Translations under genes and position numbers: made by a program
Shown: one piece after another, positions 8,002-58,298 of the stretch
Numbering within the stretch: the stretch's first letter is position 1
Layout of the letters: each line of letters opens with the position of its first letter
Origin: Giardia intestinalis
Taxonomy: Eukaryota
Strand: one strand, 5' to 3'
NCBI GenBank assembly: GCA_000002435.2
Contig: CM018789.1
Length of the DNA: 64,000 nt
The notes under the pieces: generated by a model
Seen by the model: the letters and a program-made list of their open reading frames with translations, nothing else
What the model was told of the DNA's origin: nothing
Database searches by the model: none

Positions 8002-8014
8002 TGGATGCTATAGC

Positions 8015-29520: not shown

Positions 29521-29522
29521 AC

Positions 29523-29537: not shown

Positions 29538-29541
29538 ACAT

Positions 29542-31197: not shown

Positions 31198-32148
31198 GTC
31201 ACGGAATTCAGTGGAGCACAGCGGCCAACGGAAGCGAGGGCACATCCTCAAGCTACACCGGAGACCCGTTAATGCAGCATCCGTCCTCAGCAAGCATGAC
31301 TGAGGAAGCCCAGCACTGGCTTTCCTTGCTGTGGGAAGGCATAAGTGTATACATAGACAATGAGTGCATCCATTGCTACATTAACCCAACTGGCGCTTGT
31401 GGCCCTTGACACCCATAGCTATCGTATCCTGCACCTGGCAGACTGCCCGAGTGACCATCGTGGGGGACACAGCGATCGTGATGCTCATGGAGTGGTACAG
31501 AGCTGAATATTAGAGATGGTATTGGTACATCCTGGTTCGTCCACTTCAACCAAGCGGTAGGTGATGCTCTGTACTTCCTAGTCGGAAGAGGTAGTCAGTT
31601 CTGACTTGAGACTCTCCAGCCTTTCGCGGTCCAAATTGCCAAGTTGCATCCTCTTTACTCAGACTTGAATAGTCTCTGAAAGAGTGACATTAAAGGTGGT
31701 GCTACCAAGCTCATTATCTATGCTTCATACAAATACCCTAGGGTAAGCATTAGGCTTTTACAGCAGGAGTAAGTGCAACGGTTTTCATCGGTCACGCTCT
31801 CTTCTAATTCTAACTGTGTAAAGATTGGTATTAATTAAAAGAGCTGTTGAGGGAAACTTTATTATCCTAAAGGGATAAGGAACTACACAAAATGAAGCAC
31901 TCTATTAGAGCAGAAATGCTCGACTATAAAAAGAAGTACATCGATAATAGATTGAGGTTCTCACCATTGACATTTTTCCCCTGTGCATAAGCACTCGCTG
32001 TCACAGTAATTGATCTGTAAATTTCTGCTTTATAACACAAAGCAAGGAAGCAGTTTTGTGAACACCTCATCCGATGTCTAGGCTCTTCATGCTAGACACA
32101 TTGATAACGAGATACCGATCGAAAGAGAAACCAATCCACGATGGAGGC
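31198..32148. other. About 950-bp gene-free region upstream of the VSP and downstream of TatD, which is unusually long for this compact genome
   Basis: No ORF of 60 aa or more that is not an artefact, and no RNA gene motifs seen. It contains a 33-aa ATG ORF at about 31893-31994. Confidence 0.4.
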
Positions 32149-41443: not shown

Positions 41444-42604
41444 TCAGTAGAAGCCAATGCGCTTGCTGCCCACAGTCATATCCAGCGCATTATCTATTTG
41501 GTCGGCTTCTGGGTTGTCCCAGGCGGTGTTGACGCGCTCTGTGCCAGTTAAACAAACATCAGAGATGCCCATAAGGAGTCGCTTGAGCTGGGTGATAATC
41601 ATCTCTGCGCGTTCATGCTTTCTCTGGAGTAGATCTAGCTCATCACGCAGGATGTTGATGTCATCCGCCTTCTCCATTTGGGCCTGGTGATCGGTCTCCA
41701 TGGCGTTGCGAAGTATCTGGGTCTCCTCCTCTAGCTCATAGATTCTGCTCTTCAAGACTTCGTTTTCTTCATCTGCCCTTACAGCAGAAGTGTCAGACAC
41801 ACCCGACATCCCGCAGGCACGTAGCTTAGACTCCTTAACCTGTGACTCATGTATCTCAAGAACCTCATCATTTGCTGCAATGAGCTGCTCATTGAACTGA
41901 GCCAAGAGGGCGTCTTTCTCCTCTATCTCATTTTGGAGACGCTGTATCTCTTCCTCATGGATTCTCTTCATCGCTTTCTTTTCGGCTTCAAGGCGCTTCT
42001 GGTTAGCAAGGGAGTTTGCGAGCTCCTCTACAGAAAATTGCGCCGCCGTCGTTCTCTGCTCTATGGTAGTCTCATAAGCATGGATCTTCTTGTGCGCATT
42101 TTCTAGTTCTTCGCGGTACTGATCACACTGTGCACAGTGGTGCAATTTAGAAGACCCCAACGACGCTCTGTGGCTCGCTCTACCCTCCAGGATACTCTCT
42201 AGTTCCGCAATTCTGTCCAAGGCATTTGACAATTCCATGGCTAATGTTGCCCTGGCCTCCTCCGATTCTGCAATGCGCTGCTCAAGACGAGAAGAGGTTG
42301 CTAGCGCCTGAGATGCAAGGGCGTGATATTCACTGGATTTGGTTGCCAACTTTGCCTCTTGGCGGCTCAAAGACCTTCGGAGATGCGATTCTCGACGTTG
42401 TGCTGTAACCAGTTCGCCGTCAACAACGTTTCTGAGTTCTTCAGCGCTCGACTGTATAGAACGCGCAGCCGCTACGGCTTGCTCTGCAGCCAGGCGCGAG
42501 CGGTCGAGAGAATCATCGATGCGCTTCTGTTCCGTGACAAACTGCTCGTTATCGTTGTTCGAGGTCTCGGGGGAGTCCAAAGAAAGCAAGAGGTTGTCAC
42601 CCAT
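41444..42604 (-). CDS. Coiled-coil protein, about 387 aa. Start moved from the track's GTG at 42658 to the ATG at 42604
   Basis: Heptad-rich E/L/R/A sequence throughout; first in-frame ATG gives MGDNLLLSLDSPE.... Confidence 0.5.
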   Translation of the reverse strand: MGDNLLLSLDSPETSNNDNEQFVTEQKRIDDSLDRSRLAAEQAVAAARSIQSSAEELRNVVDGELVTAQRRESHLRRSLSRQEAKLATKSSEYHALASQALATSSRLEQRIAESEEARATLAMELSNALDRIAELESILEGRASHRASLGSSKLHHCAQCDQYREELENAHKKIHAYETTIEQRTTAAQFSVEELANSLANQKRLEAEKKAMKRIHEEEIQRLQNEIEEKDALLAQFNEQLIAANDEVLEIHESQVKESKLRACGMSGVSDTSAVRADEENEVLKSRIYELEEETQILRNAMETDHQAQMEKADDINILRDELDLLQRKHERAEMIITQLKRLLMGISDVCLTGTERVNTAWDNPEADQIDNALDMTVGSKRIGFY

Positions 42605-42677
42605 TTTTAAAAACACGCCTCGCCATTTTTTAGCTAACGCATTTTTGACAAAAAGCACAAATAGATTGGTTCACATA

Positions 42678-45600
42678 TTAGTCCTTCTTCCACTTAGAAA
42701 TGTCTGAGACCGTCCCAACGGCACCAATGGCATTGTATGCCTCGCGAGAGTTATCCGCTATGCTATTCGGACTAACAACTGTCGGGCTTGTTATCACTGG
42801 GCTGCGAACAGCACGCTCTAGAGCATCTAGCTTGCGTTTCAGAACATCGTTGTTTATGTTCATCCCATTCACCTTGTCCTTCTCATTGGCCAGGCTAACC
42901 TCCAAGTCTCTGAGCTTGCTGGTAAGATCAACTATCTGAGATTTGCTGAGGCTGTCATCGGGAAGCGACATTGAGCTTGTTCCGTATTTTTCGTTTAGAC
43001 TCTTGAGGTGTTCCGAATAGGAAGCATTGAGATCATCAAGATCAGTTATTGCCTGAGACATTTCAACGACCGCGCGACGCTTCTTGACGTCTGAGTTGAT
43101 CATCTCCGCCATTAAACGCTTGTTATCCTCCTCAAGCTCGCGAACCTTGCGAGACAGATCATCAATAGATGAAACATCGGCGAGGAAGACTGCCGAGTCT
43201 GGATTGGCAATGCCGTTTTCATCGCAAAACTTTCGGAGCTTAGTATGGAGGATGTCACGCTCCTTGATCGCCGTGTTGTACTGAACCTTGAGCTTTTCGC
43301 ATTCGTTTTCTGCATCCTGAAGACGCTTTATTGTTGCCGTGATATCACTTGGAATCCTCGCCAGTTCTTCATTTTTCTTGGAAAGCTCGTCCTTTAAAGC
43401 CGCAAGACTGCTCTCCAATTCGCTTACTTGATCGCGCAACGACTGGACAGCCTTAGCATCGGCGCTACCACCAGCTAGAGATTCCTCAAGAGACTTTCGC
43501 AGATTCTCTACCTCAAGTTCTTTGACCCGGAGCTTCTCAAGGAGAAGCTTATCATGCTGGGATGCGTCGACAGCATCCTCCTTTAGGCGCTGGATCTGGT
43601 CTTCACTATTTGCAAGCGCGGCTTGCATATCCGCGATGATCTTGCGAAGCTTGTTGTTCTCATCTTCCCTGATTCCCTGCTTCTCAAGAGAGTCTTGGAG
43701 CAGCACGCGCAGGCGCTCAATTTCGAGATCCTTATTCTTGAGAAGAGACTTATATTCGTTGGTTTGCTGTCTCACGCTTATGAGGTCCTTCGGAAGTGCG
43801 TCGCGGTTCTTGACAATCTCAGCCAGATCTCTCTGATGAGCCTCAGCCTCATTCAAAAGCCTAGCATATTCTTCCGGACTTTTGGTTGGTTGATCAATCA
43901 GCTTAAGCTCTCTCTGGAGGCGAACGATGTCATCGGTAAGAGAAGCAAGGAGAGCCTCCTTGCGAGCACGCTCCTCCGGTGTCATCTCTGTCTCTGGGTC
44001 AGAAAGCGCAGTCTCAGCCTCTTTATGTTGCTCCCTGAGCTTCGCCAGTAGTCCATACTTTTTATAAAGTTCAACCTCGTCAGGCGAGAGACCGTCAAAG
44101 TGCTTTTTGAGTCTAGAATTCTCATCTTCCAAAGCTCTGTAATGATCCTCACGTGTGCTGTTAGCATCCGTACGAAGGCTTTCGATCATGGCCTCACGCT
44201 CACGGAGTGCTTGGCGCATGGTATCAAGCTCCTCTCGCTTTTCAATCACATCTGCCTTGAGCTGTTCAAGATCCTTGCCCATAGCGGAGATCAGCTCGTC
44301 TTTCTTCTTGGTCTCTGCATTGCCATCATCGAGTTTCTTCTTTAGAGCTGCCACCTCCAGTTCATGCTTCTTCAATAAATCGCCGTGCAGTTCATCCATG
44401 GCATGGGCGCCAGCTTCACTGGTTGAAAGTACAGAGTTAGCTGTCGAGTTGGTGAGCGCATCCCGCAGGCTCTTCTCCACGCCACTCTTTGCGATAGACG
44501 CCTCCCTCAGGTGAGTAAATGAACGTTCTTGGTGCATAATCGCTTCGGCAAGGCGCTCCACCTCTTCTTCACGCAAGTCAAGATCCTCCTTCAGCATTTC
44601 AACCTCCATCTCCAGCTCTGCGATACGAAGAATAAGTTCTGCATTAGATCCTTGGTTGGCGTTGCTGATCTTCTTGAGAACTTCCTCGTCATCTCCAACC
44701 TCTGCTTCAACGGGTCGTTCACTGGCCACAATGTCTCCAGAATCTGCAAAAGCCAACTTATCCTTAAGCTCCTCTATTATATCATCTTTGTCTAAGAGCT
44801 CTTTGTTCAGGTCCTTTATTTCCTGAGTCTTTTCAATGACGTGTGCCTTAAGGACATCAATATCCGAGCGTAATGCATTAATCAAATCATCATTAGCGGG
44901 TGCAGCCTCTGCAAACGTAGCAGGCACAGTACCTTGCGTAGCAAGTTGCTCTTTGGTCTTAAAAAGTTCCTCCTTAAGGTCGTTCAGCTCCTCCTCTGTA
45001 GTTCGAAGCTGCTGCTTGAGAGCTGCTTGATCAGCTGTGGAATCATTGCTGCGCAGCCTCTCTATCTCAGCTTCCTTCTCCTTAATCATATTTTGGAGGA
45101 ACATATTATGTGTATTGAGGGCCTCCTTGTCCTTCTCCAAGGCATGGATCCGGCCAGAACCGTCATCGGGCAAATACTTCACCTCATTCAAAGCATCGTC
45201 CAACTTCTGTTGCAGATCATCCAGTTCTCTGTCCTTGTCGCGAATAATATCCTCAAGCTTTACAATAGTGCTCCTAAGGACATTGATGTCCTGAATCTCT
45301 CCTTCGTACATGGCCACGCTCGTGGTGGAGGCTTCCACTGCATCTCCGGTCTTGTTGAGCCGAAGATTGAGTTGCTGGATGGCATCATCACGGGCCTCAA
45401 CAAGCCTCTCAAGGGCGGAGATTCTCTTTACATAAGTCTCTACCTCCTCACGAAGTCTTCGAGTATCCTCACCGTCTGTAAAAGGCTGAGCATTTTGAGC
45501 TGCCTGAAGTGCACGAGTCAGATCTATGACATCCTTTTCCTTCTGAGCGAGCTTTTCCTCGAGGTCCTGGACTGTTGCCTCAAGTGTTCTAAGTCTGTCG

Positions 45601-47540
45601 TCCTCTTCGTAATCAACGAGACCTCGGAGCTTGTCTGCTTCGTCACGTTTGTTTCTGAGCTCTCTCTTGAGTGCATCCACCTCTGCAAGGAGATCCACTT
45701 CGCGCGTGGAGTCCACCACCTGACCTTGCGCGGACAATAAGCTACGGAGCTCCGATATCTGTTCTTCCCTCGCACGGAGTTCTGCACGAAGGTTCTTTAC
45801 TTGAGCCGAGTCATCATCTCTCACCTCAGCAAGCACCCTATTAAGTTCCTCTAGGAGCCTGTTGTATTCCGTTTCGCTTTCAGCAAGCTTTCTGTCCATA
45901 TTTGCTATCTCAATGCCTCTAGAGATAACCAGGGCTCGAAGCCTATCGAGCTCTTCTCTCAAAGCGTCCTCTGCACTGCCACTCTCGGCAACTTTAGCAA
46001 GCATGCTTCGGAGACTCTCATTTTCAGTTCTAAGAGCATCCGCCTCTGCGGCGTCGCAAGCAGCGTGCAGGGCGTCCTGGAGACGGGCAATCTCTGCCTC
46101 CTGGGCTTTAACAGTCTTCTTGAGTTCGTCAATCTCACGTTCCCTCTCAGCAAGGTCTCTACGTAACTGCTCCTCAACTTCCCTAGATGGCGTCGTGCTG
46201 TTAAGAATCTCTAGCTGCTCTTCACTCTCCTTAAGTCGCTCCTTAGTGCGCGCAAGCTCCTCCTCTAATTCTGCAACACGCCGGCTGTTTTCCTGTTCAG
46301 ATGTATTCAAAAGACTACGGAGTTGGACTATCTCCTCATCGCGCTTAGCATACTCGGCAATCGTTGCCTCCTGCTCTTTAGCGTTTGTCACGAGCTCCCT
46401 AAGGCGCTCATTCTCACTCTCTAGATCCCTAACTCGCGTATCAGCGTCTTTCACCACTTTTTCACGGAGACTGTTGAGTTCGGCCTGTGCGGCAGCCAGA
46501 TCTGCTTCTAACTTCTGAACCGTGGCATCCTTAAGAGTTGCTGAGGATGATAAGCCTGACAGCTCAAGATTATTGCGCATGCTCTCGTTGGTGTTCGCAA
46601 GACGCGAGGTGTCTCGAAGAGCAGACGAAGTCGCCATACTATCCTCTACCGTCGCATGGAGAGAGTCTATCTTCTCCTTGTACTCACTGAGCGTCTGCTT
46701 GAGGCGCTTTATCTGGTCTTGAAGAGCGACATTATCGCTGTAAATAGAGGAGGACTCCTCATGCAACGTGACCAGCTTCTGCTCCAGAGCGAGGATTTTG
46801 GCTTCGAGGTCTTTTTCAAGCTGCGTCTTGGAAGCGTTACTAAACACAGGCCCGCCCGGTGAAGTTGCATTACGAAACATGTCAATGGCTTGCAGGCTAG
46901 AGGCAAGATCGCCACCTATCTGTATACTCCCATTCAGGCTCATATTTGACAGGTTCTGTAGGGACTGAGACGTGATTCCAGGAAGCGTATTAGACTCAAA
47001 TTGCCTAAGATAGTTTGCGACGTCAGCATACCCTGCATTTGCAGCAAGAATTAGCGCTGTTTCGTTATTGTGAGACACTATCTCTCTCTCCCTAATAGCC
47101 AGATACTTCACGACGTCGAGGTGCCCCGCCTCCGCCGCATACATCAAGGCAGTTCGGCCACGATTATCCTGTATGGTCTTCTGATATGGCAAAAGATAGA
47201 TTATAGCGTCCATGCAACTGTGCTTTGCAGCCAGCATCAAGGGGGTTCGCCCCTCTGGATCTCTACTAGCCATCTCGTATGATATCAGACGCTTACAGAT
47301 TTCGCCCTGATTAGAGAGTGCTGCCATCATTATTGCCGTCTGTCCATCGGAGTCCGTCATTGAGTGTTCTGTATAAGCAAGAATCTTGACCATATCGACG
47401 TCGCGGTTAGCCACTGCATGCATTAGCCCTGTGCGCCCATCTTTATCCGTGGACCGACCATATTTCTGCAGATTGCTTTTGACAAGCTCGTGGCTTCTGC
47501 CATCTATGGCTGCAAACCAGTCATCCTTGGACTCAAGCAT
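42678..47540 (-). CDS. Ankyrin-repeat N-terminus plus >1300-aa coiled coil (GASP-180-like / Protein 21.1 family), 1620 aa
   Basis: N-terminal DDWFAAIDGRSHELV and five ANK repeats (GRTGLMHAVANRDVDMVKIL, GQTAIMMAALSNQGEICKRL, ...). The remainder is a continuous coiled coil rich in E, L, K and R. It is the first of three tandem paralogues on the minus strand. Confidence 0.8.
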   Translation of the reverse strand: MLESKDDWFAAIDGRSHELVKSNLQKYGRSTDKDGRTGLMHAVANRDVDMVKILAYTEHSMTDSDGQTAIMMAALSNQGEICKRLISYEMASRDPEGRTPLMLAAKHSCMDAIIYLLPYQKTIQDNRGRTALMYAAEAGHLDVVKYLAIREREIVSHNNETALILAANAGYADVANYLRQFESNTLPGITSQSLQNLSNMSLNGSIQIGGDLASSLQAIDMFRNATSPGGPVFSNASKTQLEKDLEAKILALEQKLVTLHEESSSIYSDNVALQDQIKRLKQTLSEYKEKIDSLHATVEDSMATSSALRDTSRLANTNESMRNNLELSGLSSSATLKDATVQKLEADLAAAQAELNSLREKVVKDADTRVRDLESENERLRELVTNAKEQEATIAEYAKRDEEIVQLRSLLNTSEQENSRRVAELEEELARTKERLKESEEQLEILNSTTPSREVEEQLRRDLAEREREIDELKKTVKAQEAEIARLQDALHAACDAAEADALRTENESLRSMLAKVAESGSAEDALREELDRLRALVISRGIEIANMDRKLAESETEYNRLLEELNRVLAEVRDDDSAQVKNLRAELRAREEQISELRSLLSAQGQVVDSTREVDLLAEVDALKRELRNKRDEADKLRGLVDYEEDDRLRTLEATVQDLEEKLAQKEKDVIDLTRALQAAQNAQPFTDGEDTRRLREEVETYVKRISALERLVEARDDAIQQLNLRLNKTGDAVEASTTSVAMYEGEIQDINVLRSTIVKLEDIIRDKDRELDDLQQKLDDALNEVKYLPDDGSGRIHALEKDKEALNTHNMFLQNMIKEKEAEIERLRSNDSTADQAALKQQLRTTEEELNDLKEELFKTKEQLATQGTVPATFAEAAPANDDLINALRSDIDVLKAHVIEKTQEIKDLNKELLDKDDIIEELKDKLAFADSGDIVASERPVEAEVGDDEEVLKKISNANQGSNAELILRIAELEMEVEMLKEDLDLREEEVERLAEAIMHQERSFTHLREASIAKSGVEKSLRDALTNSTANSVLSTSEAGAHAMDELHGDLLKKHELEVAALKKKLDDGNAETKKKDELISAMGKDLEQLKADVIEKREELDTMRQALREREAMIESLRTDANSTREDHYRALEDENSRLKKHFDGLSPDEVELYKKYGLLAKLREQHKEAETALSDPETEMTPEERARKEALLASLTDDIVRLQRELKLIDQPTKSPEEYARLLNEAEAHQRDLAEIVKNRDALPKDLISVRQQTNEYKSLLKNKDLEIERLRVLLQDSLEKQGIREDENNKLRKIIADMQAALANSEDQIQRLKEDAVDASQHDKLLLEKLRVKELEVENLRKSLEESLAGGSADAKAVQSLRDQVSELESSLAALKDELSKKNEELARIPSDITATIKRLQDAENECEKLKVQYNTAIKERDILHTKLRKFCDENGIANPDSAVFLADVSSIDDLSRKVRELEEDNKRLMAEMINSDVKKRRAVVEMSQAITDLDDLNASYSEHLKSLNEKYGTSSMSLPDDSLSKSQIVDLTSKLRDLEVSLANEKDKVNGMNINNDVLKRKLDALERAVRSPVITSPTVVSPNSIADNSREAYNAIGAVGTVSDISKWKKD

Positions 47541-47715
47541 TCAGCACTGGCCCGTTTTATAAATTAAAATGACTTTAATGAATATTTTATGGATAGGCGG
47601 AAAAAGCATTTTTTTGATTTTCCGCAAGCGCCAGAAGGTGCAACCGGGGTGTATCCAAGCTTCAGAGTTCGTTTATTTACAAACAAAGTGGTAATAAGCC
47701 AACTACACAAAACAA

Positions 47716-50700
47716 TTAATGAATAACGGTTTGTAAGAATTGAGCACCAAACACCATACTTGCACCAACACACATTCCAGCAACAAAATTGATGCATCGG
47801 TCTGCTCTTTCCATGACGTCATCGGACTCGTTGACGCTTCGTGGTTTCTCCACATGATCAGAATACTCACTAGCAATCTTATCTGGGATTCTCTGAGATA
47901 ATTTGAGTGTCTCTGCCTGCTGGCGCTCAATCGCAAGCTCCTTAACTTTATCCTCTATCTGCCTTTTGAGGTCCTCCTTCACAGCATTGAGCTGGGAGTT
48001 CTCGGTTCTCAGCCCCTCCAGCTCCCTTGTTAGAGACGTGATAAGTTCTTCAGACTGAGCGCCCGCGGCAATCTGTTTGTTAAGTTGTTGATTTTCAGCT
48101 CGTAACTTCTCAATAACTTCACCGGTAGCTGAGAGCCTGTCCTGAAGAGAGGAAAGCTCCGCCTCCAACGGAGAAATTTGTGCGCCCAAGTTCTCTATAC
48201 GCTGCAGAGCGTCGGTTAGCTCACGTTCCTTCGCGTCTGCACGTTCATTGGCGTCCTTGAGCGCCTGCTCTAAATCAGAGATTCTAACATCGTCTGTGCC
48301 AGTTGCCAAAGAGGGCTCCTCCAAAACAGGAGCAGCAGGCAGAGGTAAATTCTTGGCAGAGCTGGTCTTCATGGCGTTAATTTGATCGTTGAGGATATTC
48401 TTTTCAGTCATTAGCGCCGTAATCTTATTGTTGAGCTTCTTAATGCGTCTTCTTTCAGAATCAAGCAACTCTCGAAGCTCATCCAATGACAGCTCACCTA
48501 GATTCTGGGTACTCCTAGAAGTAGACCTAGCTAGGCTTGGTATCGATGAGAGATCAGGATTAGAAGAGGCACTCTCAATCGTTTTCTCTTCCAGTTCAGC
48601 TTTCAATAAATCTATCTTTGAATTAGCCTCTTCTAATTCTAGGCACTTAGAGCTCAATTGATCCTTAAGGGTTGAAAGTTCATCATTCAACCTCGAAATA
48701 TCTGCGTCAGATGTTGATACTTGTGCATTGATAGCGTCCAGTGACTGCTCCAGATCAATAATAGTTTTGTTGAGTTTAGAAACCTCGTCACGTAGGCTAT
48801 CTCTTTCGGCTGTAACATGAGCCAAATCCTTTCGCAATTCCTCAGTGTCAACATCAGATTTCTTGTCTACTGTACTATCATCAATAAGACGACGTAACTC
48901 ATCAATCTCAGCAGTGCGCGCTTCTAACTCTGCAGTAAGGTCTTGAACTTGTGAGTCAGGGACCTCCTCCTCCAGTGCGCGAATGCGGGCCCTCGCCCCG
49001 GCGCACTCCTGCTCCAGGTCCTGGACGTCCTGGTCGCGCGCCGCAAGCCTGTCGCGGAGCTTGGCTATCTCCTTTTCGTGGCGGGCCGCCTCTTCCTTCA
49101 TGCGCTCCAGCAGGAACGACGAGTCGCCCAGCTCGCCCACGGTCCTCTGGAGGTCTGCGATCTCCTGGGTCTTGAATGCAGCCTCCTTCTGGAGAGCAGA
49201 GAGGCGCTCTTCGAGGGCGTAGACGCGCGCGTCGTCTCCGCTCGGGGCGCCCGACACAGATGCGCGCAAGTCGTCGTTGGCACTAGTCAGGCCGTCGATC
49301 TCTCTTTGGAGGGCGTGGATCTCGTGCGCCTGGAGGCGGTTGACGTTGTGGAGGTTCTTGACCTCGGCCTCGAAGAGGGCGACCTCCTCCTCGTGCTCTG
49401 CGCGATCAACAGTTGTCTCCGCAAGTAGCTTGATATCTCTTTCAAGATCTGCAACACGTTTGCAAAGTAGCTGACGCTCGTTTTCTAGAATGGTTCCGTC
49501 ACTAGGCAAAATAGTTGCGTTGCCTGATGGTTCTAGTGTAATCAGAGGAATCACATTATCTTCAGCGGCTTGATCACGTAGTTGTTGCAGTTCTAGTTCC
49601 CTAAGTTGAAGATTATCTTCTAACTCGGTAATACGTTTTAAGGAATCATCATTCGGATCCATAGGCTGACGAGCCTTGATATCCTCAATTTGTAATTCTA
49701 AATCTTTCAAATCTCTCCTTTTGTCCTTAATTTCATCATCCAATACCTGGATCAGTGCGCGGCGATTCTCCAAAGTTTCTTCTAAGTCCTGGGCTGATGG
49801 CAGTATCGAGCTCTCAATGTGGGCCTTCAATTCGGAAATTTCACCTCTAAGAAGAGCAATATCCTCATCTTTTCTTTGAAGAGTAAGCTGCATAGCAGTT
49901 AATTTTTCATTCAAAGAAGGACTATTGTTAGACAGTAAATCATCTAATTGATGTTGTAATGATGCTACCTCATCGCTCTTCAGCTTTAGCTGAGCCGAAT
50001 AATACTCATTAGACTGTATAAGCATTTGAATATCAGTCTCAGAATCCGCTGGTTGTTTGGTCGACGGTGAGAAATCACCTGCAGTGAACGAGTTCAATTG
50101 ACGTTCATATAGATCACATTTATTCTGTGATTCTTCTAAGGCTTCTGCAACACATGCTAATTCAAATTGGAGCTTGGCAATGTGATCCTCTAAAGAAGTA
50201 ATGAAATTGGATTGCTCAGCGGACAAAGAATCACGAGGTTCTTTTTCTTCAGAGAGAGATTTATCGTTAGAAATGTTGCTATTTAATTTGTCCTGCAGAT
50301 GTGCAACAGCGTCTTCCAGAGTCCGAATGCGAAGTTTCGCCTCAATGTTTTCTTGTTCCAACTCTTGGAAGTCTTGACTATGAGTAGTATCACGAGTAGA
50401 CCCGTCCTGTACGCTCTCCTGCAATTCCAGCAACCTATGATTAGCTTCATCAAGTTGTGCTCTAGTTTCTTTCAGTTTTTCCTCCAAAATCGCTATAGGA
50501 TAATCATCTTCTTTAGTGTCAAGTAAATCACGTAAACGATCAGCTTCCTCGCGTAGTCTTTCATTTTGGTCTTTTAGCGCATCTAGATCCCCCGTTTGTT
50601 TAAGTGAATTTATAGTAAGCAAGGCATTATCGAGAGTATACTCTAATTCAGCCTTCTCTGTTTTGAGACATTCAAGTTGATTCTTCAATTCTAAAAATTC

Positions 50701-53214
50701 AACCTCAGAAACATTGACAGCCAAAGGCTTATCTCGTGATTGACTAGTTGTCATAAGGTGAGATGCATCAGAATCTGTAGTATCAGATACTGCTTCTAGC
50801 GCGCGAATGCGGGCCCTCGCCCCGGCGCACTCCTGCTCCAGGTCCTGGACGTCCTGGTCGCGCGCCGCAAGCCTGTCGCGGAGCTTGGCTATCTCCTTTT
50901 CGTGGCGGGCCGCCTCTTCCTTCATGCGCTCCAGCAGGAACGACGAGTCGCCCAGCTCGCCCACGGTCCTCTGGAGGTCTGCGATCTCCTGGGTCTTGAA
51001 TGCAGCCTCCTTCTGGAGAGCAGAGAGGCGCTCTTCGAGGGCGTAGACGCGCGCGTCGTCTCCGCTCGGGGCGCCCGACACAGATGCGCGCAAGTCGTCG
51101 TTGGCACTAGTCAGGCCGTCGATCTCTCTTTGGAGGGCGTGGATCTCGTGCGCCTGGAGGCGGTTGACGTTGTGGAGGTTCTTGACCTCGGCCTCGAAGA
51201 GGGCGACCTCCTCCTCGTGCTCTGCGCGATCGGCAGCAGCAGCCAGAGACACTTCTCTGAGTTCTTTGAGCTCTTGCTCATATGCATTCTTAACATCATC
51301 AAGGTGTGATACACATCTATGAAGCTCTGCATTATCCGCTTCAAGGCATGAAATACGGTCATGCACCAGTTCAACTTGTGTAGTGAGTTCATTCTTTAGT
51401 GCATCTACCTCAGCCGTACGCGCTACAAGCTGGCTAAGCAACTCTTCGTTTCGGCTTTCAAGGGCTGCAATCCTGCCTTCATCACCAGCAGGCTCCCCAT
51501 TGACAGACTTTTGCAGGTCTTCATTTAGGGCCCTGCACTCATCAAGCTCCTCGGCAAGCTCCCGCAATTTGGACTTCTGGTCGTGAATTTGGTGGCGTAG
51601 TTCCTTAACTTCCTGTTCTTGAGCTTCTGCTTCTGCTTCAAGGATCTGGACGCGATTGCGAAGCATTTCGTTCTCCTCCTGGAGATTGTCTCTCTCAGCA
51701 GACAGGGCAGTAAGTAGTCCAGCAAGATTCTCTCTTTCTTCTGTCCACATGAACTTATCTGCATCATTAGACTGACTCTGCAATTTGCTTTCAAGGTCGT
51801 GAATGCGAACATTTGGGTCTGTCGGGCTTTGAGAGTGAGCCTCTTTAGTCATGCTATGCTCATCTGCTCCTGTTTCTATCTTATCTGATGGCGAAAATTG
51901 ATTATCAGCTGAACAAATCCGACCGCGCAACTCTTCAATGGTGGCGTTAAGCGTCTTGTAAGCATCAATCTGCTCAGAAAGCTGCTTCTTCAGATCATCA
52001 ATGATCCTATCCTTTTCCTCTACTTCCCTGGCAAGTCTCTCGGAAAGCTCAGATGAATCGTGAGCTGGAAGCGCAGCAATTTTCATTTTTAGTGCGGCAA
52101 TCTCATCATTCTTCTCCAAAGATTCTGTGGGTGCGCCAGGGGGATCGGGAGCAATCGATAGCTCTAGGGCGCCGTATCTCTGGCCAAAATCGGCTTGAGA
52201 CTCAGAAAGCATATTATTCGACTGCAAGTCGCGCAACGTCTGCGTCATGTCAGTCAACTCTTTTACCTGCTCCGCCGTATCTTGGTGGCATCTTCGCTCA
52301 TCATCGAGCTCCAATTTGAGCTCCTGATTGTGACGGAGAAGCTCCTGGATACGCTCATGAAGACGCTTGTTTTCCACTTGCAAATTAGCATTACGACTCA
52401 TAAGTTCGGATGCATCCTCATGAAGCTTTCCTATTCGTGTCTTCAGTTCCAAATTCATTGTGTTAAGTTCAGAAAGTGCAATGGCCTTTGTTGTCTCCAG
52501 GCGTTCAGAGAGGTCAGCCTGGCTCATAATCAAGTCAGAAGTGCTTGAATCCTGAGACGCAGTAGAGTGGTTGAGAAGATTCGACGGTACCAGTGAGGCA
52601 TCTAGATCTGTGCGGCGAGACATACTAAGGCGTGCGCTTTCAGATAGCATCGCCATTGTGTCCTCTTCTGATGATCGTAGAAACTCCACCACATCATGAT
52701 GGTGATGCATGATTGCAATAGAAAGGGCAGTCTCATGCTCCGAAGAGGAAAACTTACACTCGCGAGCGTGCAAGATTTCCACGATAGAAAGATCTCCGCG
52801 TGCGGCCGCATACATAAGAGCTGTGCGTCCACGACTATCTACTTTGGTGACGTAGTAAGGCATAAGGGCTTTTGCTGCATCCAGAGAGCCATTCTGTGCA
52901 GCAAGCATAAGAGGGGTGCGCCCATCTGGAAGGATCAGATGCGACTCCTTAGCTACCAGCGCACGGCAGCACCTGGCCTTATTAACGATCGCAGCGATCA
53001 TAAGAGCGGTAAGCCCATCAGAATTCGTAAACCCACTACCATTATGAAGCAGAACCTTTACAGCATCGTAATTGTCGCTACGAACAGCGCGCATAAGGGC
53101 AGTCTCTCCATTCTCATCACGCAGAGACGCACACTCGCTCGCCGCCGCACGAATAGTCGCTATGTCGCCCTGGTCGACCGCAGCAAACCATGTTCCCACG
53201 CTAGGCGGAGCCAT
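47716..53214 (-). CDS. Ankyrin-repeat plus long coiled-coil protein (GASP-180-like), about 1833 aa. Start moved from the track's TTG at 53253 to the ATG at 53214
   Basis: N-terminal MAPPSVGTWFAAVDQGD, ANK repeats (GETALMRAVRSDNYDAVKVL, ...), then coiled coil. Contains the internal perfect repeat described separately. Confidence 0.8.
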   Translation of the reverse strand: MAPPSVGTWFAAVDQGDIATIRAAASECASLRDENGETALMRAVRSDNYDAVKVLLHNGSGFTNSDGLTALMIAAIVNKARCCRALVAKESHLILPDGRTPLMLAAQNGSLDAAKALMPYYVTKVDSRGRTALMYAAARGDLSIVEILHARECKFSSSEHETALSIAIMHHHHDVVEFLRSSEEDTMAMLSESARLSMSRRTDLDASLVPSNLLNHSTASQDSSTSDLIMSQADLSERLETTKAIALSELNTMNLELKTRIGKLHEDASELMSRNANLQVENKRLHERIQELLRHNQELKLELDDERRCHQDTAEQVKELTDMTQTLRDLQSNNMLSESQADFGQRYGALELSIAPDPPGAPTESLEKNDEIAALKMKIAALPAHDSSELSERLAREVEEKDRIIDDLKKQLSEQIDAYKTLNATIEELRGRICSADNQFSPSDKIETGADEHSMTKEAHSQSPTDPNVRIHDLESKLQSQSNDADKFMWTEERENLAGLLTALSAERDNLQEENEMLRNRVQILEAEAEAQEQEVKELRHQIHDQKSKLRELAEELDECRALNEDLQKSVNGEPAGDEGRIAALESRNEELLSQLVARTAEVDALKNELTTQVELVHDRISCLEADNAELHRCVSHLDDVKNAYEQELKELREVSLAAAADRAEHEEEVALFEAEVKNLHNVNRLQAHEIHALQREIDGLTSANDDLRASVSGAPSGDDARVYALEERLSALQKEAAFKTQEIADLQRTVGELGDSSFLLERMKEEAARHEKEIAKLRDRLAARDQDVQDLEQECAGARARIRALEAVSDTTDSDASHLMTTSQSRDKPLAVNVSEVEFLELKNQLECLKTEKAELEYTLDNALLTINSLKQTGDLDALKDQNERLREEADRLRDLLDTKEDDYPIAILEEKLKETRAQLDEANHRLLELQESVQDGSTRDTTHSQDFQELEQENIEAKLRIRTLEDAVAHLQDKLNSNISNDKSLSEEKEPRDSLSAEQSNFITSLEDHIAKLQFELACVAEALEESQNKCDLYERQLNSFTAGDFSPSTKQPADSETDIQMLIQSNEYYSAQLKLKSDEVASLQHQLDDLLSNNSPSLNEKLTAMQLTLQRKDEDIALLRGEISELKAHIESSILPSAQDLEETLENRRALIQVLDDEIKDKRRDLKDLELQIEDIKARQPMDPNDDSLKRITELEDNLQLRELELQQLRDQAAEDNVIPLITLEPSGNATILPSDGTILENERQLLCKRVADLERDIKLLAETTVDRAEHEEEVALFEAEVKNLHNVNRLQAHEIHALQREIDGLTSANDDLRASVSGAPSGDDARVYALEERLSALQKEAAFKTQEIADLQRTVGELGDSSFLLERMKEEAARHEKEIAKLRDRLAARDQDVQDLEQECAGARARIRALEEEVPDSQVQDLTAELEARTAEIDELRRLIDDSTVDKKSDVDTEELRKDLAHVTAERDSLRDEVSKLNKTIIDLEQSLDAINAQVSTSDADISRLNDELSTLKDQLSSKCLELEEANSKIDLLKAELEEKTIESASSNPDLSSIPSLARSTSRSTQNLGELSLDELRELLDSERRRIKKLNNKITALMTEKNILNDQINAMKTSSAKNLPLPAAPVLEEPSLATGTDDVRISDLEQALKDANERADAKERELTDALQRIENLGAQISPLEAELSSLQDRLSATGEVIEKLRAENQQLNKQIAAGAQSEELITSLTRELEGLRTENSQLNAVKEDLKRQIEDKVKELAIERQQAETLKLSQRIPDKIASEYSDHVEKPRSVNESDDVMERADRCINFVAGMCVGASMVFGAQFLQTVIH
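48977..49407. repeat. Copy A of a perfect ~431-bp intragenic direct repeat, GC-rich
   Basis: Identical sequence from gcgcgaatgcgggccctcgcc... to ...ctcgtgctctgcgcgatc at 48977-49407 and 50801-51231 (offset 1824 bp). Track ORFs 48983-49222 and 50807-51046 translate identically, as do 49098-49283(-) and 50922-51107(-). Confidence 0.85.
50801..51231. repeat. Copy B of the perfect ~431-bp intragenic direct repeat
   Basis: See copy A. In the host protein it duplicates about 143 aa in frame (DRAEHEEEVALFEAEVKNLHNVNRLQ...ECAGARARIRALE). Confidence 0.85.
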
Positions 53215-53310
53215 ATATTTACTGAAACACTCGCCCTTTAAAATGAAATTCAAACTTTATCATGACGGGTAACAGGGGCCCGCACGCAAAACGCAGAGTT
53301 CACTAGCGGC

Positions 53311-56300
53311 CTACTGGAGGTCCAGGGCCGAGAGGTTGTCGTCGAGGACGACGATGCCGGCGCGGATGTCGTCCACAAGCTTCTTGTAGTACTCGACGGC
53401 CTTCCGGAGGTTGCCCGTCTCGCTGATGGCCTTGCCGCACTCGTCCGTCTTCTGCGCAAGGTCCTCGTTGGCCTTGTCGAGCGACTCCTGCAGCGAGGCG
53501 ATCTCTGCCTCGAGCGCCATGGTGCGCTCGTCGTTTGCGGAGTGGAGGTTGGCGTCGCGGGCCTCCTCCAGCTCCCTGTTCAGGGCCTCGATCTGGGCGC
53601 TGACCTCCGCATTCTTGCCCTCCTGGTCGTCGAGAAGGCCCTGGAGCTCCGTGATGGTGTTCTCGCGGTCGTCGAGCTCCTCCTGGAGCTTCCTGAGCTC
53701 CTCCTGCAGGCTCTCGACGACGGCCGGGTCGATGTCGTTCGCCGTGTTCTTGAGCACCTCGACCTCCTCCTGGAGATCCGCGATCTGCTTCCTGCTCTCG
53801 TCCAGGGAGCACTGGAGAGCGGTGATCTTGTCGTTGTTGGCGCTGTCCAGCTTGATCATCTCGTCCTTGAGGTCGCTGCACTGCTGCTTGAGGCCGTCGA
53901 TCTCGTCCTGGAGCTCGTCGATGAGGGACCGCTTGGCCTCGAGTTCGTCCTTCAGCGCTGCGTTCTCGTCCTGGACCTCCCGGAGGGCCGCAGCATCCCC
54001 GACCTCCTCGCCGGACTCCGGATAGACGGTGGTCGCGGTGGGCTGGGCCTCCAGCTGTTCGCGCAGCTCGGCGATCTCGGCGTCCTTGTCCTTGAGCCCG
54101 TCGTTGAGGACCGCGATCTCGTCATCGAGCTCTGCGATCCTCTCCTTGAGGTCGTCGTACTCCTCGGTGTCGCGGAGCCTCTGCTTGAGCTCGTCGATGG
54201 TGGCGTCCCGCTCCGCCACAAGCTCCTTGGCTCCGCTGAGGTCCTTCTCGAGCTGCTCGACGAGCTTCTGGAGGTCGCCGTCTGCTGCCCTGGAGTCGCT
54301 GAGAGCGTGGAGCTTGTCCTGGAGGGCCTCGGCGCTCTCCCTGAGCTCGCGCACGGTGGCCTCGCTGGCCTCGAGCTTGTTTGCGAGCTCGGGGTCCGCA
54401 GTCGCAAGCTCGGCCCGGAGCCCCTCCGTCTCCATCTCCTTGGCCTCGAGCGCGGCGCGCAGCTCTGCAAGCTCCTTGCGCGCGTCCTGGAGCTGGTCCT
54501 CGAGCATCCGGACGCGCTCGGTGTCCTCGGGCACCTGGGCGGTCTCGAGCTGGACCCGGAGTCCGCCCAGCTCCTCGCGGAGGCGCGCGGCCTCGGCGTC
54601 GCTGTCGACGAGGTTCTTGTGGACGGCGTCGATCTCGGCGAGCTTGGCGCTGAGCTGCCCGCGGAGCTCTGCCACCTCGTTCTCGAGGGAGGCAACCCGA
54701 GCCTTCGCAAGCTCCGCGCCGTCGTCATCGGTGACGGCTCTGAGGCCTGTCGTCGCGCCCGCGAGCTCGGCGTCCTTGCTGGCGAGCTGGGCGAGGAGGC
54801 TGTCGACCATCTCCTTGCTCTCGCCGAGTTTGGTCTTGTAGCCCTCGACCTCGGCGAGGAGCTCGCTAAGCCGCTCGGTGTTCTCGACGCTGGCGCGGAC
54901 AATGGCAAGCTCCTTCTCGAGTTGCTCGATGGTCTCGTCCTTGCCTCTCGCCGCGTCGGTCAGCTCGTCGACGCGGCTGCGAAGGTCGGCAACCTCCTGG
55001 CGCAGGGCCGCGACCTCGCCCTGGTCCTGTGGGGCGCCGAGGTCCTTGCGCAGGCTCTCCACCAGGTCTGTCAGGTCCCGGACCTGCTTCATGAGCCGCT
55101 CCTTGTCGCCCTCCAGGGAGTCGCTCCTCAGCTTGCCGTTGCGCAGGTCCTCCTTGAGCGCATCCATCTCCGCCATGATCCGCGCGTGCTCACCCTTGTA
55201 GTGGTCGTTCTCGCCGGTGAGGGCGTTGACGAGGGCCTGCAGCTCGTCGACCTTCTGGACCAGGCCGTCGTCGAAGTCGAGGATGCTCGAGACCTTGGCC
55301 TGCTCCTCGGGGTCGACGTCGCTGATCTCCGTCTGGGCGTCGACGTACTCCGCACCGGACTGGTCGGACGGCGCCACGCTGAGCGGCTTCTCGCGGAGCT
55401 CGCAGAGGGCGTCGTTGAGCTGCCTCACCTCGTCCTCGAGGCGGCGGAGGCTGTGCTCCTTGTCGGCGACCTCCTTGCCCTTGTCTGCAGCGAGCTGCTC
55501 GAGCTCGGCGAGTCGCGCGGTCTTCTCTTCAAGTCCTCGGATTGCGTCGTCGCGCGCGGCAACGGTGCCCCGGAGGTCCGCGATCTCATCCTCGAGGATC
55601 TTGATGCGCGCGTCGTCTTGGGGCACGGTGCTGTCAAGCTGGGCCTTGAGGTCCGCGATGAGGCTCTCCTTCGCGTCCAGGGCGCCGTTGAGCCTGTTGA
55701 GCTCGTCCTTCTGCTCGCGGTTCTGGCCGTGCATGACCTCGAGCTCCTCGTTGAGGACCTGGACCTCCTCCCTGAGCGCGTCGAGTTCCTCCTTGAGCCT
55801 GTCGAGGTCCTCGGAGGATGCGCCGGGCTCCTCGGTGTAGACCGTCGAACCCACTGGTTTCTGCTCGAGCTCCCTCCGCATGTCCTCCATCTCGGCCACC
55901 GCGCAGTCGTACCTGTCCTTGAGCGAGAGGAGCTGCTCCTGCGCGTCCTCCAGCTGCTCCTGGAGCTCGACAAGTTTCTCCACGTCGCTTGCGTCTCCGC
56001 TCGCCCGGGCGTTGGCGAGCGCCTCCTTGAGGTCAGAGACCTCCTTGTTGAGGTGGGCGACCTGGCCGCGGAGTCCGCTGGCCTCGTCTGCACCGCTCTT
56101 CCTGAGGGCCTCAAGCGCGTCATTGAGGGCCTGGAGCTCGTCTTTGAGTCGGCCGTTCTCCTCCTCCAACGCGGTGAGCTGCGCCGGGTCGGCCTCGACC
56201 GGCTGGGCGGGCGCGCCGTCGACGAGCTCCTTGAGCTCTGCGATCTGGTTATCGCGCGCCTCGATCTCATCGGTCAGCGCCCTGATCTTCTCCTCGAGGG

Positions 56301-58194
56301 CGCGGATGGCCGTCTCGTCTGCGGGGGCGTCGCGCGACCTACCGCTGAGCTCCTTGACCTGCTGCTGGAGCTCCTCGATGCGTGCAAGGTACTCTGCAGC
56401 GTCTGCTCCCCGCGTGGCGTCTGCCTCCAGGGCGTCCACCCTTTCCTGGAGAGCCGCGCTGTTCTTCATCTCCTCCTGGATGCGGTCGCGGAGGAGCTCG
56501 ATCTCGTCGTCGCGCTCGTCGATGTCCTGCTTCGCGTTGGCGAGCTCGAACTGGAGGTCTGCGATCTGCTCGTTGAGCTCCTTGACCCTCTCGTCGTCGC
56601 CGCCCTGCGCGTCGGCGAGGAGCCTCTCCAGCCCTGCGATCTGCGCCTCGAGCTGGGCCACGCGTTTATCGCCCTCGGCAGACGACCTCTGGGCGCTCTC
56701 TGCGCGCATGACGAGGTCCTGGAGGCGGGCGATCTCCGAGTTCTTGGCGGCGATGATGGCGTCGAAGTCCGCCGCCTCGCCTCCCCTGGCCAGGGTCTCC
56801 TCGAGGCGGCTCTGGAGGGCCTCGAGCTCCCCGTCCTTGGCGAGGAGGGCCTGGCGGAGGCTCTCGACCTCCTCCTCGAGAATCTGCGTGGCGTACGCCT
56901 CGTCCTGGCTGGCGGCTGCCTGTTCCAGCTCGGCAATGCGTGCGTCGCGCTCATCGAGCATGGACCGGAGGCCTGCGAGTTCGTCCTCGAAGGCCCTGGT
57001 CTTCTCGACGATGGGCCGGAGCCCCGAGAGGTCGGACTCGCGCGCCTCCAGCTCCTCCCGGAGGGCGCTGATCTTGTTTTCGTAGTCTGCGAGGAGGGCC
57101 GCGTCTCCCGTGGGCGACGGGACGGCGGTCAGGCGCTCGTTGAGGGCGCGGATGTCCCTCTCCTTCTCCGCGAGCTCGGACTGGAGCGCCCTGATCTTGT
57201 CCTTGAGGCCGTCGACGTCCTCACCAGACCCGCCGGCGCTGAGCATTCCCTCCATGTCGGAGAGACGCTCCTTGAGGTCGCTGATGATGGCGTCCTTGTC
57301 GGCCGTCTCGGACTGGAGCCTGCTGATTTCGATGCGCAGCGTGGTGATGTTCTCCTCCATGTTCTTGACCTGGCCGTGCAGGGAGACGTTTTGGCCGATG
57401 ACGATCGACGACTCGTCGTGCAGCGAGGCCAGCTTCAGCTCGAGTTGCATGATCTTGGACTCGAGCTCGTGCTCGAGCTGCGTCTTGGTCTGCGTGAGGG
57501 AGTCAGCCTGTCCGCCGGGGAAGCGGTGCGCGTCGATCAGAGAGAATGACAGGGAGAGGTCGAGGGCGGGGTTTCCGACCTGGGACGAGGAGAAGTTCAT
57601 GAGCGAGGGGCGGGTGAACTCCGGAATCAGGTTCGCCTCATAGGACGCGAGGCACTGGACGATGTCGGTGTGCCCGTTCTCGGCCGCGAGCACGAACGCC
57701 GTCTTGTGGTCGTACGAGACGATCTCCTTCTCGCGGACCACGAGGAGCTTCACCACGTCCGTGTGGCCGGCCGCCGCCGCGTACATCAGGGCGGTGCGCC
57801 CGCGCGCGTCTGTCTTGGCCTTGAGGTAGGGGAGCAGGTTGCTGACCGCCGCGGTCGACCCGTGCTCGGCGGCGAGCATGAGGGGCGTCATCTGGAAGTC
57901 GCCGTAGGTGGTGTTGACCTCATAGGCGACGAGGCGCTTGCAGACGTCGCCCTTGTTGGCCTCGGCGGCGATCATGATGGCGGTCTTCCCCTCGCCGTTG
58001 ACCATGCCGTTCTCGAAGAAGCCGAGGATCTTGACAAGCTCCACGTTCCCTTCGCGCGCGGCGATCATCAGGCCCGTCTCGCCGTCACCGTTGACGGACT
58101 TGGCGTACTCTGCTGCGTGGTTGCGGATCAGCTCGACCTGGCCGGCCTGGATGGCCTCAAACCATTCCTCCACAGAAGACACCACTGCAGGCAT
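53311..58194 (-). CDS. Ankyrin-repeat plus long coiled-coil protein (GASP-180-like), 1627 aa, strongly GC-rich
   Basis: N-terminal MPAVVSSVEEWFEAIQAGQVELI with ANK repeats (GETGLMIAAREGNVELVKIL, GKTAIMIAAEANKGDVCKRL, ...), followed by a coiled coil dominated by GAG/CTC/GCC codons. The plus strand is stop-free for about 4 kb, which is a composition artefact. Confidence 0.8.
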   Translation of the reverse strand: MPAVVSSVEEWFEAIQAGQVELIRNHAAEYAKSVNGDGETGLMIAAREGNVELVKILGFFENGMVNGEGKTAIMIAAEANKGDVCKRLVAYEVNTTYGDFQMTPLMLAAEHGSTAAVSNLLPYLKAKTDARGRTALMYAAAAGHTDVVKLLVVREKEIVSYDHKTAFVLAAENGHTDIVQCLASYEANLIPEFTRPSLMNFSSSQVGNPALDLSLSFSLIDAHRFPGGQADSLTQTKTQLEHELESKIMQLELKLASLHDESSIVIGQNVSLHGQVKNMEENITTLRIEISRLQSETADKDAIISDLKERLSDMEGMLSAGGSGEDVDGLKDKIRALQSELAEKERDIRALNERLTAVPSPTGDAALLADYENKISALREELEARESDLSGLRPIVEKTRAFEDELAGLRSMLDERDARIAELEQAAASQDEAYATQILEEEVESLRQALLAKDGELEALQSRLEETLARGGEAADFDAIIAAKNSEIARLQDLVMRAESAQRSSAEGDKRVAQLEAQIAGLERLLADAQGGDDERVKELNEQIADLQFELANAKQDIDERDDEIELLRDRIQEEMKNSAALQERVDALEADATRGADAAEYLARIEELQQQVKELSGRSRDAPADETAIRALEEKIRALTDEIEARDNQIAELKELVDGAPAQPVEADPAQLTALEEENGRLKDELQALNDALEALRKSGADEASGLRGQVAHLNKEVSDLKEALANARASGDASDVEKLVELQEQLEDAQEQLLSLKDRYDCAVAEMEDMRRELEQKPVGSTVYTEEPGASSEDLDRLKEELDALREEVQVLNEELEVMHGQNREQKDELNRLNGALDAKESLIADLKAQLDSTVPQDDARIKILEDEIADLRGTVAARDDAIRGLEEKTARLAELEQLAADKGKEVADKEHSLRRLEDEVRQLNDALCELREKPLSVAPSDQSGAEYVDAQTEISDVDPEEQAKVSSILDFDDGLVQKVDELQALVNALTGENDHYKGEHARIMAEMDALKEDLRNGKLRSDSLEGDKERLMKQVRDLTDLVESLRKDLGAPQDQGEVAALRQEVADLRSRVDELTDAARGKDETIEQLEKELAIVRASVENTERLSELLAEVEGYKTKLGESKEMVDSLLAQLASKDAELAGATTGLRAVTDDDGAELAKARVASLENEVAELRGQLSAKLAEIDAVHKNLVDSDAEAARLREELGGLRVQLETAQVPEDTERVRMLEDQLQDARKELAELRAALEAKEMETEGLRAELATADPELANKLEASEATVRELRESAEALQDKLHALSDSRAADGDLQKLVEQLEKDLSGAKELVAERDATIDELKQRLRDTEEYDDLKERIAELDDEIAVLNDGLKDKDAEIAELREQLEAQPTATTVYPESGEEVGDAAALREVQDENAALKDELEAKRSLIDELQDEIDGLKQQCSDLKDEMIKLDSANNDKITALQCSLDESRKQIADLQEEVEVLKNTANDIDPAVVESLQEELRKLQEELDDRENTITELQGLLDDQEGKNAEVSAQIEALNRELEEARDANLHSANDERTMALEAEIASLQESLDKANEDLAQKTDECGKAISETGNLRKAVEYYKKLVDDIRAGIVVLDDNLSALDLQ

Positions 58195-58298
58195 GTTTTA
58201 TTATCCAGATAGTGTAAAGGTCCATTCGATTTTAAATTCACTTCCCGCCTCTCAGATGCGGCCGGCGTGCGCTGTGTATGCAGCCGGACCCGCTTGCA

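Follow-up and report, generated by a model that had tools for sequence, protein, structure and literature searches.

The stretch of DNA analysed here (the window, 64,000 nucleotides), placed by exact protein look-ups on chromosome 1 (1,485,438 bp) of Giardia intestinalis WB, carries the gene for GASP-180, an axoneme-associated protein, as the third of three consecutive minus-strand genes coding for ankyrin and coiled-coil proteins, and this third gene is far richer in GC than the other two. Our main new result is that the GC-rich block extends past the gene, through a spacer and into the 3' part of the next gene upstream, GL50803_0061566, where it ends close to the border of a duplicated segment. 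We propose, with a probability that we put at roughly 0.6, that the outlier arose by GC-biased gene conversion between repeated copies, perhaps with codon selection acting on top. The features on which the argument turns are the following.

42678-47540, minus strand: gene 1, GL50803_41212 'Ankyrin repeat protein 1', 1620 aa, a head-stalk paralogue
47716-53214, minus strand: gene 2, 'Ankyrin repeat protein 3', re-annotated GL50803_32999, 1832 aa, a head-stalk paralogue
48971-49416, minus strand: repeat R2 in gene 2, 446 nt, a GC3 island of 0.838, 1824 nt from R1
50795-51240, minus strand: repeat R1 in gene 2, 446 nt, a GC3 island of 0.845
53311-58194, minus strand: gene 3, the chromosome-1 copy of GASP-180 (GL50803_0061565), 1627 aa, 179.3 kDa
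58195-58298, minus strand: spacer between GL50803_0061566 and GASP-180, with a promoter-like motif in its 3' half
58229-58243, minus strand: candidate core promoter motif AAGTGAATTTAAAAT, AT-rich and conserved, about 50 nt upstream of the GASP-180 start
58299-59830, minus strand: duplicated 3' part of GL50803_0061566, codons ~1117-1626, with the homology junction at 59830
59831-63179, minus strand: single-copy 5' part of GL50803_0061566, an internal control with a GC content at third codon positions (GC3) of about 0.36

The first-pass annotation of the window had singled out gene 3 for its composition and for a strong preference for GAG, GCC and CTC codons, and calculation bears out both points. 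The GC contents of genes 1, 2 and 3 are 0.494, 0.486 and 0.665, their GC3 values are 0.521, 0.477 and 0.917 and their effective numbers of codons (Nc) are 55.6, 55.2 and 31.7; the remaining 15 long open reading frames (ORFs) of the window have GC3 values of 0.42-0.64. GAG accounts for 215 of the 226 Glu codons of gene 3, CTC for 155 of 215 Leu codons and GCC for 109 of 214 Ala codons.

This enrichment is not a property of the GASP-180 coding sequence (CDS) alone. The GC3 of GL50803_0061566 is about 0.34-0.36 over its first ~1080 codons and about 0.7 over the last ~520, and maximum likelihood places a change-point at codon 1090 (support 1076-1097), where GC3 rises from 0.36 to 0.68. The GC-rich part of this gene shows no preference for optimal codons (10 CTC against 17 CTG; codon adaptation index, CAI, 0.54). 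In the spacer the 55 nt before motif AAGTGAATTTAAAAT, which are non-coding, are 71% GC in assemblage A, while at the other end of the block GC falls at the GASP-180 stop codon, the downstream spacer having a value of 0.45 and the end of gene 2 a GC3 of 0.52. The GC-rich part of GL50803_0061566 is also the part that occurs elsewhere. A truncated copy of its C-terminus (GL50803_0060256, 480 aa) is annotated on WB chromosome 5 and further truncated C-terminal copies are annotated in other isolates; in several isolates these copies are mosaics of chromosome 1-like and chromosome 5-like residues. In isolate DHA2 a paralogous locus (L002) has different upstream genes and joins the window abruptly at 59830, which corresponds to codon 1117, from where it is 97.4% identical over 1904 nt into GASP-180. 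This junction implies that in assemblage A the GC-rich part of GL50803_0061566 is the duplicated part.

Comparison of lineages shows that the compositional step moves with the junction. In the assemblage E isolate P15 the orthologue of the upstream gene has its step at codon 1109 (0.33 to 0.66), and in assemblage B the step lies at codon 1552 (0.31 to 0.65). Two assemblage B contigs hold the start of GASP-180 behind different left flanks, namely the full upstream gene in one and a PNP_UDP_1 neighbourhood in the other, and the homology between these two loci starts 223 nt before the stop of the upstream gene, at codon ~1554, about 74 codons from its end. At its upstream end the enriched zone coincides with the repeated tract, step and junction lying at codons 1090 and 1117 in A and at 1552 and ~1554 in B. 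The two B loci are 98.8% identical, as against 78-82% identity between A and B. A more divergent Giardia lineage (L007, from Logan run ERR3333382, 65% protein identity) has a flat GC3 of 0.29 with no step, from which low GC3 is likely the ancestral state of this stretch. Domain composition was considered as the cause of the step and rejected, as the orthologues of the same residues in B and in L007 lack it.

The stretch between the two junctions constitutes a natural experiment, in which orthologous sequence has a GC3 of ~0.35 where it is single-copy and of ~0.7 where it belongs to the duplicated segment. Over codons 1117-1552 GC3 is 0.69 in A and 0.65 in E, as against 0.35 in B. Among third-position differences between A and B in these codons, 185 have G or C in A as against 36 in the reverse direction, whereas the single-copy control part gives 250:176 (difference p = 4e-11); first and second positions together give 74:33 against 193:164 in the control (p = 0.007). 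The probable polarity of this G/C excess is taken from the comparison of lineages. The spacer before the motif behaves similarly, with a GC content of 0.71 in A, 0.74 in E, 0.75 in B and 0.365 in L007.

These comparisons also bear on a mutational explanation, according to which GASP-180 is strongly transcribed from a bidirectional promoter and transcription- or promoter-linked mutation bias raises GC locally, irrespective of copy number. In favour of such a process, the GC-rich zone is centred on one gene and spreads upstream over its promoter. Motif AAGTGAATTTAAAAT, though, is conserved in assemblages A, E and B as well as in L007, and since L007 keeps the motif it also keeps the adjacency of GASP-180 and the upstream gene. 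In spite of the same motif and adjacency, enrichment in the upstream gene covers only ~74 codons in B, and in L007 neither the upstream gene nor the spacer is enriched; adjacency thus does not set the extent of the enrichment. As a mutation bias of this kind also leaves unexplained both the drop in GC at the GASP-180 stop and the island in the middle of gene 2, we judge it quite improbable.

That island is formed by the repeats R1 and R2, whose GC3 is 0.84-0.85, as against 0.31 in the 459 codons between the copies and 0.45 elsewhere in gene 2. R1 and R2 are 100% identical to each other across the repeat core within A and again within E, yet between A and E the repeats are only about 87% identical (~13% different). 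On these sequence identities, the two copies evolve in concert, through gene conversion that has recurred after the split of A and E. In assemblage B the assembly has a single R copy, bordered on one side by the left flank of R1 and on the other by the right flank of R2. The 1.4 kb separating R1 from R2 are missing, which points to either a deletion between the two repeats or a collapse of the assembly. GL50803_32999 was among the PCR-tested candidates for cis-introns, 13 of 14 of which were rejected (PMC3610916); recombination between R1 and R2, or the mapping of reads across them, would mimic an intron of 1824 nt.

Based on these observations we propose that GASP-180, the spacer upstream of it and the 3' end of the upstream gene would form a single segment present twice in the WB genome, on chromosomes 1 and 5, whose two copies gene conversion would keep alike. 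If the repair of mismatches in heteroduplex DNA favoured G or C, GC content would rise across the whole converted tract, most at third positions, to some extent at first and second positions and also in the non-coding spacer, and the rise would end at the homology junction. Conversion between R1 and R2 would create the second GC island by the same process, and selection on codons for expression may add a preference for C-ending codons inside GASP-180. Concerted evolution is clear for the R repeats; for the GASP-180 tract the evidence is partial and consists of a published table of the two WB copies, the 97.4% identical flank in DHA2, the 98.8% identity of the B loci and the mosaic copies. That conversion was biased toward G and C, that this bias caused the enrichment, and the relative share left to selection are what we infer from the coincidence of steps and junctions.

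Translational selection acting alone is another process that would produce such codon usage: GASP-180 would be very abundant, optimal codons ending in C or G would have been fixed in it, and the enriched flanks and the island in gene 2 would be coincidental. The first-pass annotation had argued in this direction, suggesting on the basis of codon bias that gene 3 may be the abundantly expressed cytoskeletal member of the array. Its codon usage does resemble that of the putatively highly expressed Giardia genes in Table 2 of PMC1805757 ('Giardia hi', a set classed by expressed sequence tag counts of Spironucleus homologues). The correlation of relative synonymous codon usage (RSCU) with this set is r = 0.87, and the CAI of gene 3 is 0.78 as against 0.36-0.46 for its neighbours. 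CTC is far above CTG, GTC above GTG and CGC above CGG, GGC is favoured, and the Nc of 31.7 lies below the 37.1 expected from GC3 alone. Furthermore, the GC3 of GASP-180 is 0.89-0.95 in assemblages A, B and E, the protein has repeatedly been recovered in proteomic experiments, and a link between GC3 and expression has been published for Giardia, where expression-linked codon bias is likewise dominated by codons ending in C or G (Lafay and Sharp 1999, as cited, PMC1805757 and PMC8393687). Compared with the published high set, the bias of gene 3 is more extreme and extends outside the gene, and CGG is not avoided (RSCU 1.11 as against 0.08), while CTT, CGT and TCT, which the high set uses freely, are nearly absent.

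Nor is the bias confined to a selected transcript, as enrichment also reaches the spacer (71-75% GC before the motif in A, E and B), a 1.5-kb length of the upstream gene and the gene 2 island. The last ~520 codons of the upstream gene have a GC3 of 0.69 as against 0.36 in the first 1080, without preference for optimal codons; the steps lie at duplication junctions that differ between lineages; and an island of 148 codons inside gene 2 cannot be created by a force that acts at the level of the gene, such as expression. Taken together these points make selection alone unlikely, though by no means far-fetched. The step from GC3 to high expression is unsafe here, because the GC enrichment crosses gene boundaries and tracks repeated DNA in every case. 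A search of the supplements of a transcription start site sequencing paper found none of the gene ids. The closest single-copy relative of GASP-180, a paralogue of 1039 aa, is no GC3 outlier either in the divergent lineage (L008, 0.43) or as its G. muris orthologue (0.64).

Several observations weigh against GC-biased conversion as the explanation. The codon choice of gene 3 is not that of a plain push toward GC, and selection may dominate inside the CDS; selection for expression is kept in play by the excess of CTC over CTG, GTC over GTG and CGC over CGG, by the Nc and by the correlation with the high set. In assemblage A the change-point lies ~27 codons outside the duplication junction, and both the identity of the two CDS copies and the 3' junction of the duplication rest on the published table. 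The evidence from assemblage B draws on two assemblies in draft form, in which the 5-kb repeat may have given rise to chimeras, and the last 45 GASP-180 codons there lie outside the homology of the two contigs and nevertheless have a GC3 of 0.98. The lone R copy of B, too, still has a GC3 of 0.85, for which a recent deletion or an assembly collapse could account. Of the two B contigs compared, L001 (AHHH01000030.1) and L005 (ACGJ01002869.1), the latter runs into unrelated sequence without ORFs at a point 136 nt short of the stop of GASP-180; either dispersed copies have exchanged their flanks or an assembly is chimeric.

In known GC-biased conversion, as here, enrichment follows the converted tract and not function, and synonymous, non-synonymous and non-coding sites all share in it. 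Cases of such conversion in repeated genes include the mammalian histone and Hsp70 paralogues. In ribosomal DNA, too, copies homogenised by conversion are GC-rich (Escobar, Glemin and Galtier 2011, as cited in PMC10123126). The present case differs from these in that it involves a dispersed two-copy segment of ~6.5 kb and an intragenic repeat of 446 nt, in an organism in which recombination is debated. For the rRNA genes of Giardia GC-biased conversion has been raised in one paper only as a possibility, another paper on Giardia describes the mechanism of gene conversion there as unresolved, and in the literature searched we found no paper that links duplicates to GC3 in this organism. The genes of the array are annotated and their family has been described, so that the array itself is not new; what is new is a testable instance of a known evolutionary process. 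A wider claim, that GC-biased conversion between repeats is active in Giardia and a major unrecognised cause of its wide spread of GC3, is possible, but we advance it only tentatively. If it were true, the link between GC3 and expression in Giardia would be partly confounded by copy number and recombination history, and GC3 steps would map past homologous recombination in a supposedly asexual, tetraploid eukaryote. Were the pattern general, it would provide sequence-level evidence of ongoing GC-biased homologous recombination in Giardia, counsel caution in the use of GC3 or CAI as a proxy for expression there, and explain why, in earlier annotations, GC-rich repeated genes such as GASP-180 were overlooked or broken up, or had spurious antisense ORFs and false introns assigned to them.

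Gene 3 had been described as GASP-180-like; the family was right but the term understates the case, as gene 3 is GASP-180 itself, in the chromosome-1 copy of a two-copy gene whose second copy, probably all but identical, lies on chromosome 5. A published table lists two GASP-180 genes in WB, GL50803_0061565 on chromosome 1 (NC_051856.1) and GL50803_137716 on chromosome 5, which share an exon GC content of 66.56% and the position of a rarely used 42-nt junction (PMC10711314). The CDS in the window (4884 nt), less 42 nt at 59.52% GC, has a GC content of exactly 66.56%, in agreement with that table; a pattern search of gene 3 for the published 42-nt non-canonical 'intron' found none. Cys931 of gene 3 corresponds to the published C889 of A8B5G1 if the older model starts at Met43, and the published mass of 174.5 kDa is consistent with that start. 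Gene 3 adjoins GL50803_0061566, in line with the chromosomal position of GASP-180, the spacers in the window (104 and 96 nt) have the lengths given in PMC3792122, a study that had earlier flagged the locus as an unannotated 'gene repeat' of GASP-180, and the assemblage B orthologue (81% identical) bears the name 'Axoneme-associated protein GASP-180'. In the look-up collection the gene 3 protein gave no exact match, whether at full length or from Met43, nor did the chromosome-5 fragment. The 1039-aa protein on WB chromosome 5 (A8BBT5), which is >90% identical across A, B and E, is also annotated 'GASP-180', and the name shared by the 1627-aa and 1039-aa proteins invites confusion. In the literature GASP-180 is reported to localise to the anterior flagellar axonemes, in their intracellular part.

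The proteins of all three genes were confirmed to have the ankyrin and coiled-coil architecture first proposed for them, and by their sequences they are known members of Giardia's head-stalk family. Each begins with a W-F-x-A-[IV] N-terminus and has four clear ankyrin repeats of ~31 residues with the pattern G-x-T-[AGP]-[LI]-M-x-A-A; the estimate of about five repeats also stands, with five per protein, the fifth fitting the pattern in gene 3 only. Pfam Ank_2 matches have E-values of 1.8e-37, 5.5e-30 and 2.1e-48 for genes 1, 2 and 3. Strong heptad periodicity runs through all three proteins from about residue 230 onward to the C-terminus, giving a stalk of ~1400 aa, and 58-73% of residues lie in 28-residue windows with a strong hydrophobic contrast at the a and d positions, a share that is 0-4% when sequences are shuffled and 0% for a neighbouring control protein; the coiled-coil call rests on this contrast together with many coiled-coil Pfam matches. 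Genes 1 and 3 are 34% identical over 622 aa (E = 2e-74), and genes 2 and 3 match with E = 7e-53. The combination of N-terminal ankyrin repeats and a very long coiled coil is that described for the head-stalk family and GASP-180 (Elmendorf et al. 2005, Int J Parasitol 35:1001, as cited in PMC3499766 and PMC13315228), from which we see no difference at the level of the protein family, gene 3 being GASP-180 and genes 1 and 2 paralogues. In such a protein the ankyrin head would bind a partner and the coiled coil would form a rod of ~1400 residues.

Gene 2 differs in its C-terminus, which carries the following segment.

47728-47793, minus strand: hydrophobic C-terminal segment of gene 2, FVAGMCVGASMVFGAQFLQTVI, a likely tail anchor

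The segment FVAGMCVGASMVFGAQFLQTVI is conserved in the orthologues from assemblage B and G. muris and, judged by its sequence, is probably a tail anchor, in which case the gene 2 protein, in contrast to those of genes 1 and 3, would be a rod tethered to a membrane. A study of the mitosome proteome lists the old model of gene 2, GL50803_32999, in one of its tables (PMC3044749).

The compositional contrast with the neighbours is sharp enough that one might think of foreign or transplanted DNA, or of overwriting by conversion from a neighbour in the array. Gene 3 is however a true member of the family, with a head ~50% identical to that of gene 1 and a C-terminal motif (AV.YYK.LVDDI..GIV.LD.NL) in common with the lineage of the 1039-aa paralogue, including its G. 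muris orthologue, and it occupies the same place in A, B and E. Family homology and conserved position effectively refute a foreign origin, which we reject. Conversion and domain shuffling among the three array genes, which had been put forward for checking, were not found and are likewise rejected, because the genes have almost no DNA similarity: one match of 82 nt links genes 1 and 3 and one of 126 nt links genes 1 and 2, while genes 2 and 3 share none. An origin of the outlier from elsewhere or from an array neighbour is therefore hardly credible, and GC-biased conversion between the dispersed copies is the reading we retain.

The array genes are, by their sequences, ancient paralogues and not the product of a recent tandem duplication. 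Their heads are 34-50% identical among the three, and a neighbour-joining tree of head domains, without support values, groups all three genes with Giardia orthologues and pairs genes 1 and 2 each with its own orthologue in G. muris.

5403-9968 of the G. muris locus L004: orthologue of gene 2
10001-14338 of the G. muris locus L004: orthologue of gene 1

These two stand in tandem in G. muris and are followed by a gene for a 527-aa protein. The order GASP-180, gene 2, gene 1, GL50803_13584 is kept in assemblage B, and assemblage E is colinear from GL50803_0061566 into gene 2. No G. muris orthologue of GASP-180 proper was found among the matches. The 1037-aa protein that comes nearest to it in G. 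muris is, by synteny, orthologous to the 1039-aa G. intestinalis paralogue, and the G. muris 'Axoneme-associated protein' was accordingly rejected as an orthologue of GASP-180 on synteny and cluster membership, which assign it to that paralogue. A homology search with the GASP-180 head alone returned only short unrelated ANK proteins and missed even the assemblage B orthologue. In the family literature examined we did not find the conservation of the three-gene array in A, B and E, the gene 2-gene 1 pair in G. muris, the conserved hydrophobic tail of gene 2 or the lack of a G. muris orthologue of GASP-180 proper.

The narrow codon set of gene 3 has a further consequence on the opposite strand.

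53542-57549, plus strand: antisense ORF, 1335 aa, a codon-aligned mirror artefact of gene 3

This ORF is present, as noted earlier, and the warning that it is a trap for automated annotation was well founded. It has its codon boundaries in common with gene 3, so that its GC content at first positions (0.914) mirrors the GC3 of the sense strand. Stops in this frame arise only from sense TTA, CTA or TCA codons, which number 36, 79 and 67 in the three neighbouring genes but one in 1627 in gene 3 (a TCA at codon 216, 57547-57549). The open frame is therefore a by-product of the codon bias of gene 3; its product, with 25% Leu and 13% Val, is a mirror artefact and the ORF is not a gene. In the same region (window 53677-57222) a repeat-finding program picks out 23 units of 48 nt with loose similarity, of which 22 lie in gene 3 and one in gene 1, with spacings that are multiples of 3 and often 21 nt; these units reflect heptad periodicity written in a very narrow codon set and are not a true DNA repeat.

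Four long ORFs follow one another on the minus strand (42678-47540, 47716-53253, 53311-58194 and 58299-63179), the first three of which are the tandem genes that had been recognised in the window (1620, 1832 and 1627 aa). The gene 1 protein matches KAE8301312.1/XP_001704146.2 exactly. The ORF of gene 2 codes for 1845 aa from a TTG, while the annotated ATG at 53214 gives the 1832-aa protein, an exact match to KAE8301313.1; the re-annotation of GL50803_32999 is set out in PMC3792122. The fourth ORF, GL50803_0061566, encodes a protein of 1626 aa outside the head-stalk family, which by sequence resemblance we regard as a divergent DDB1/CPSF160-like protein. Its CPSF_A match is sub-threshold (26.3 bits, cut-off 27), and its full-length orthologues reach down to G. 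muris (28% identity). Downstream of the array lies GL50803_13584 (window 41444-42658), annotated with 386 aa, the longest ORF giving 404 aa from a GTG; it is called 'Chromosome segregation protein SMC' in some records, and its Pfam match is a weak IFT57-like one only. A second GC-rich zone of the window (28000-31300, GC 0.56-0.61) contains a minus-strand VSP gene at 29542-31293 (Pfam VSP E = 1e-66, GC3 0.64), and VSP-like DNA nearby shows ~80% identity with a VSP region of the DHA2 locus L002; the VSPs are another multi-copy family with raised GC.

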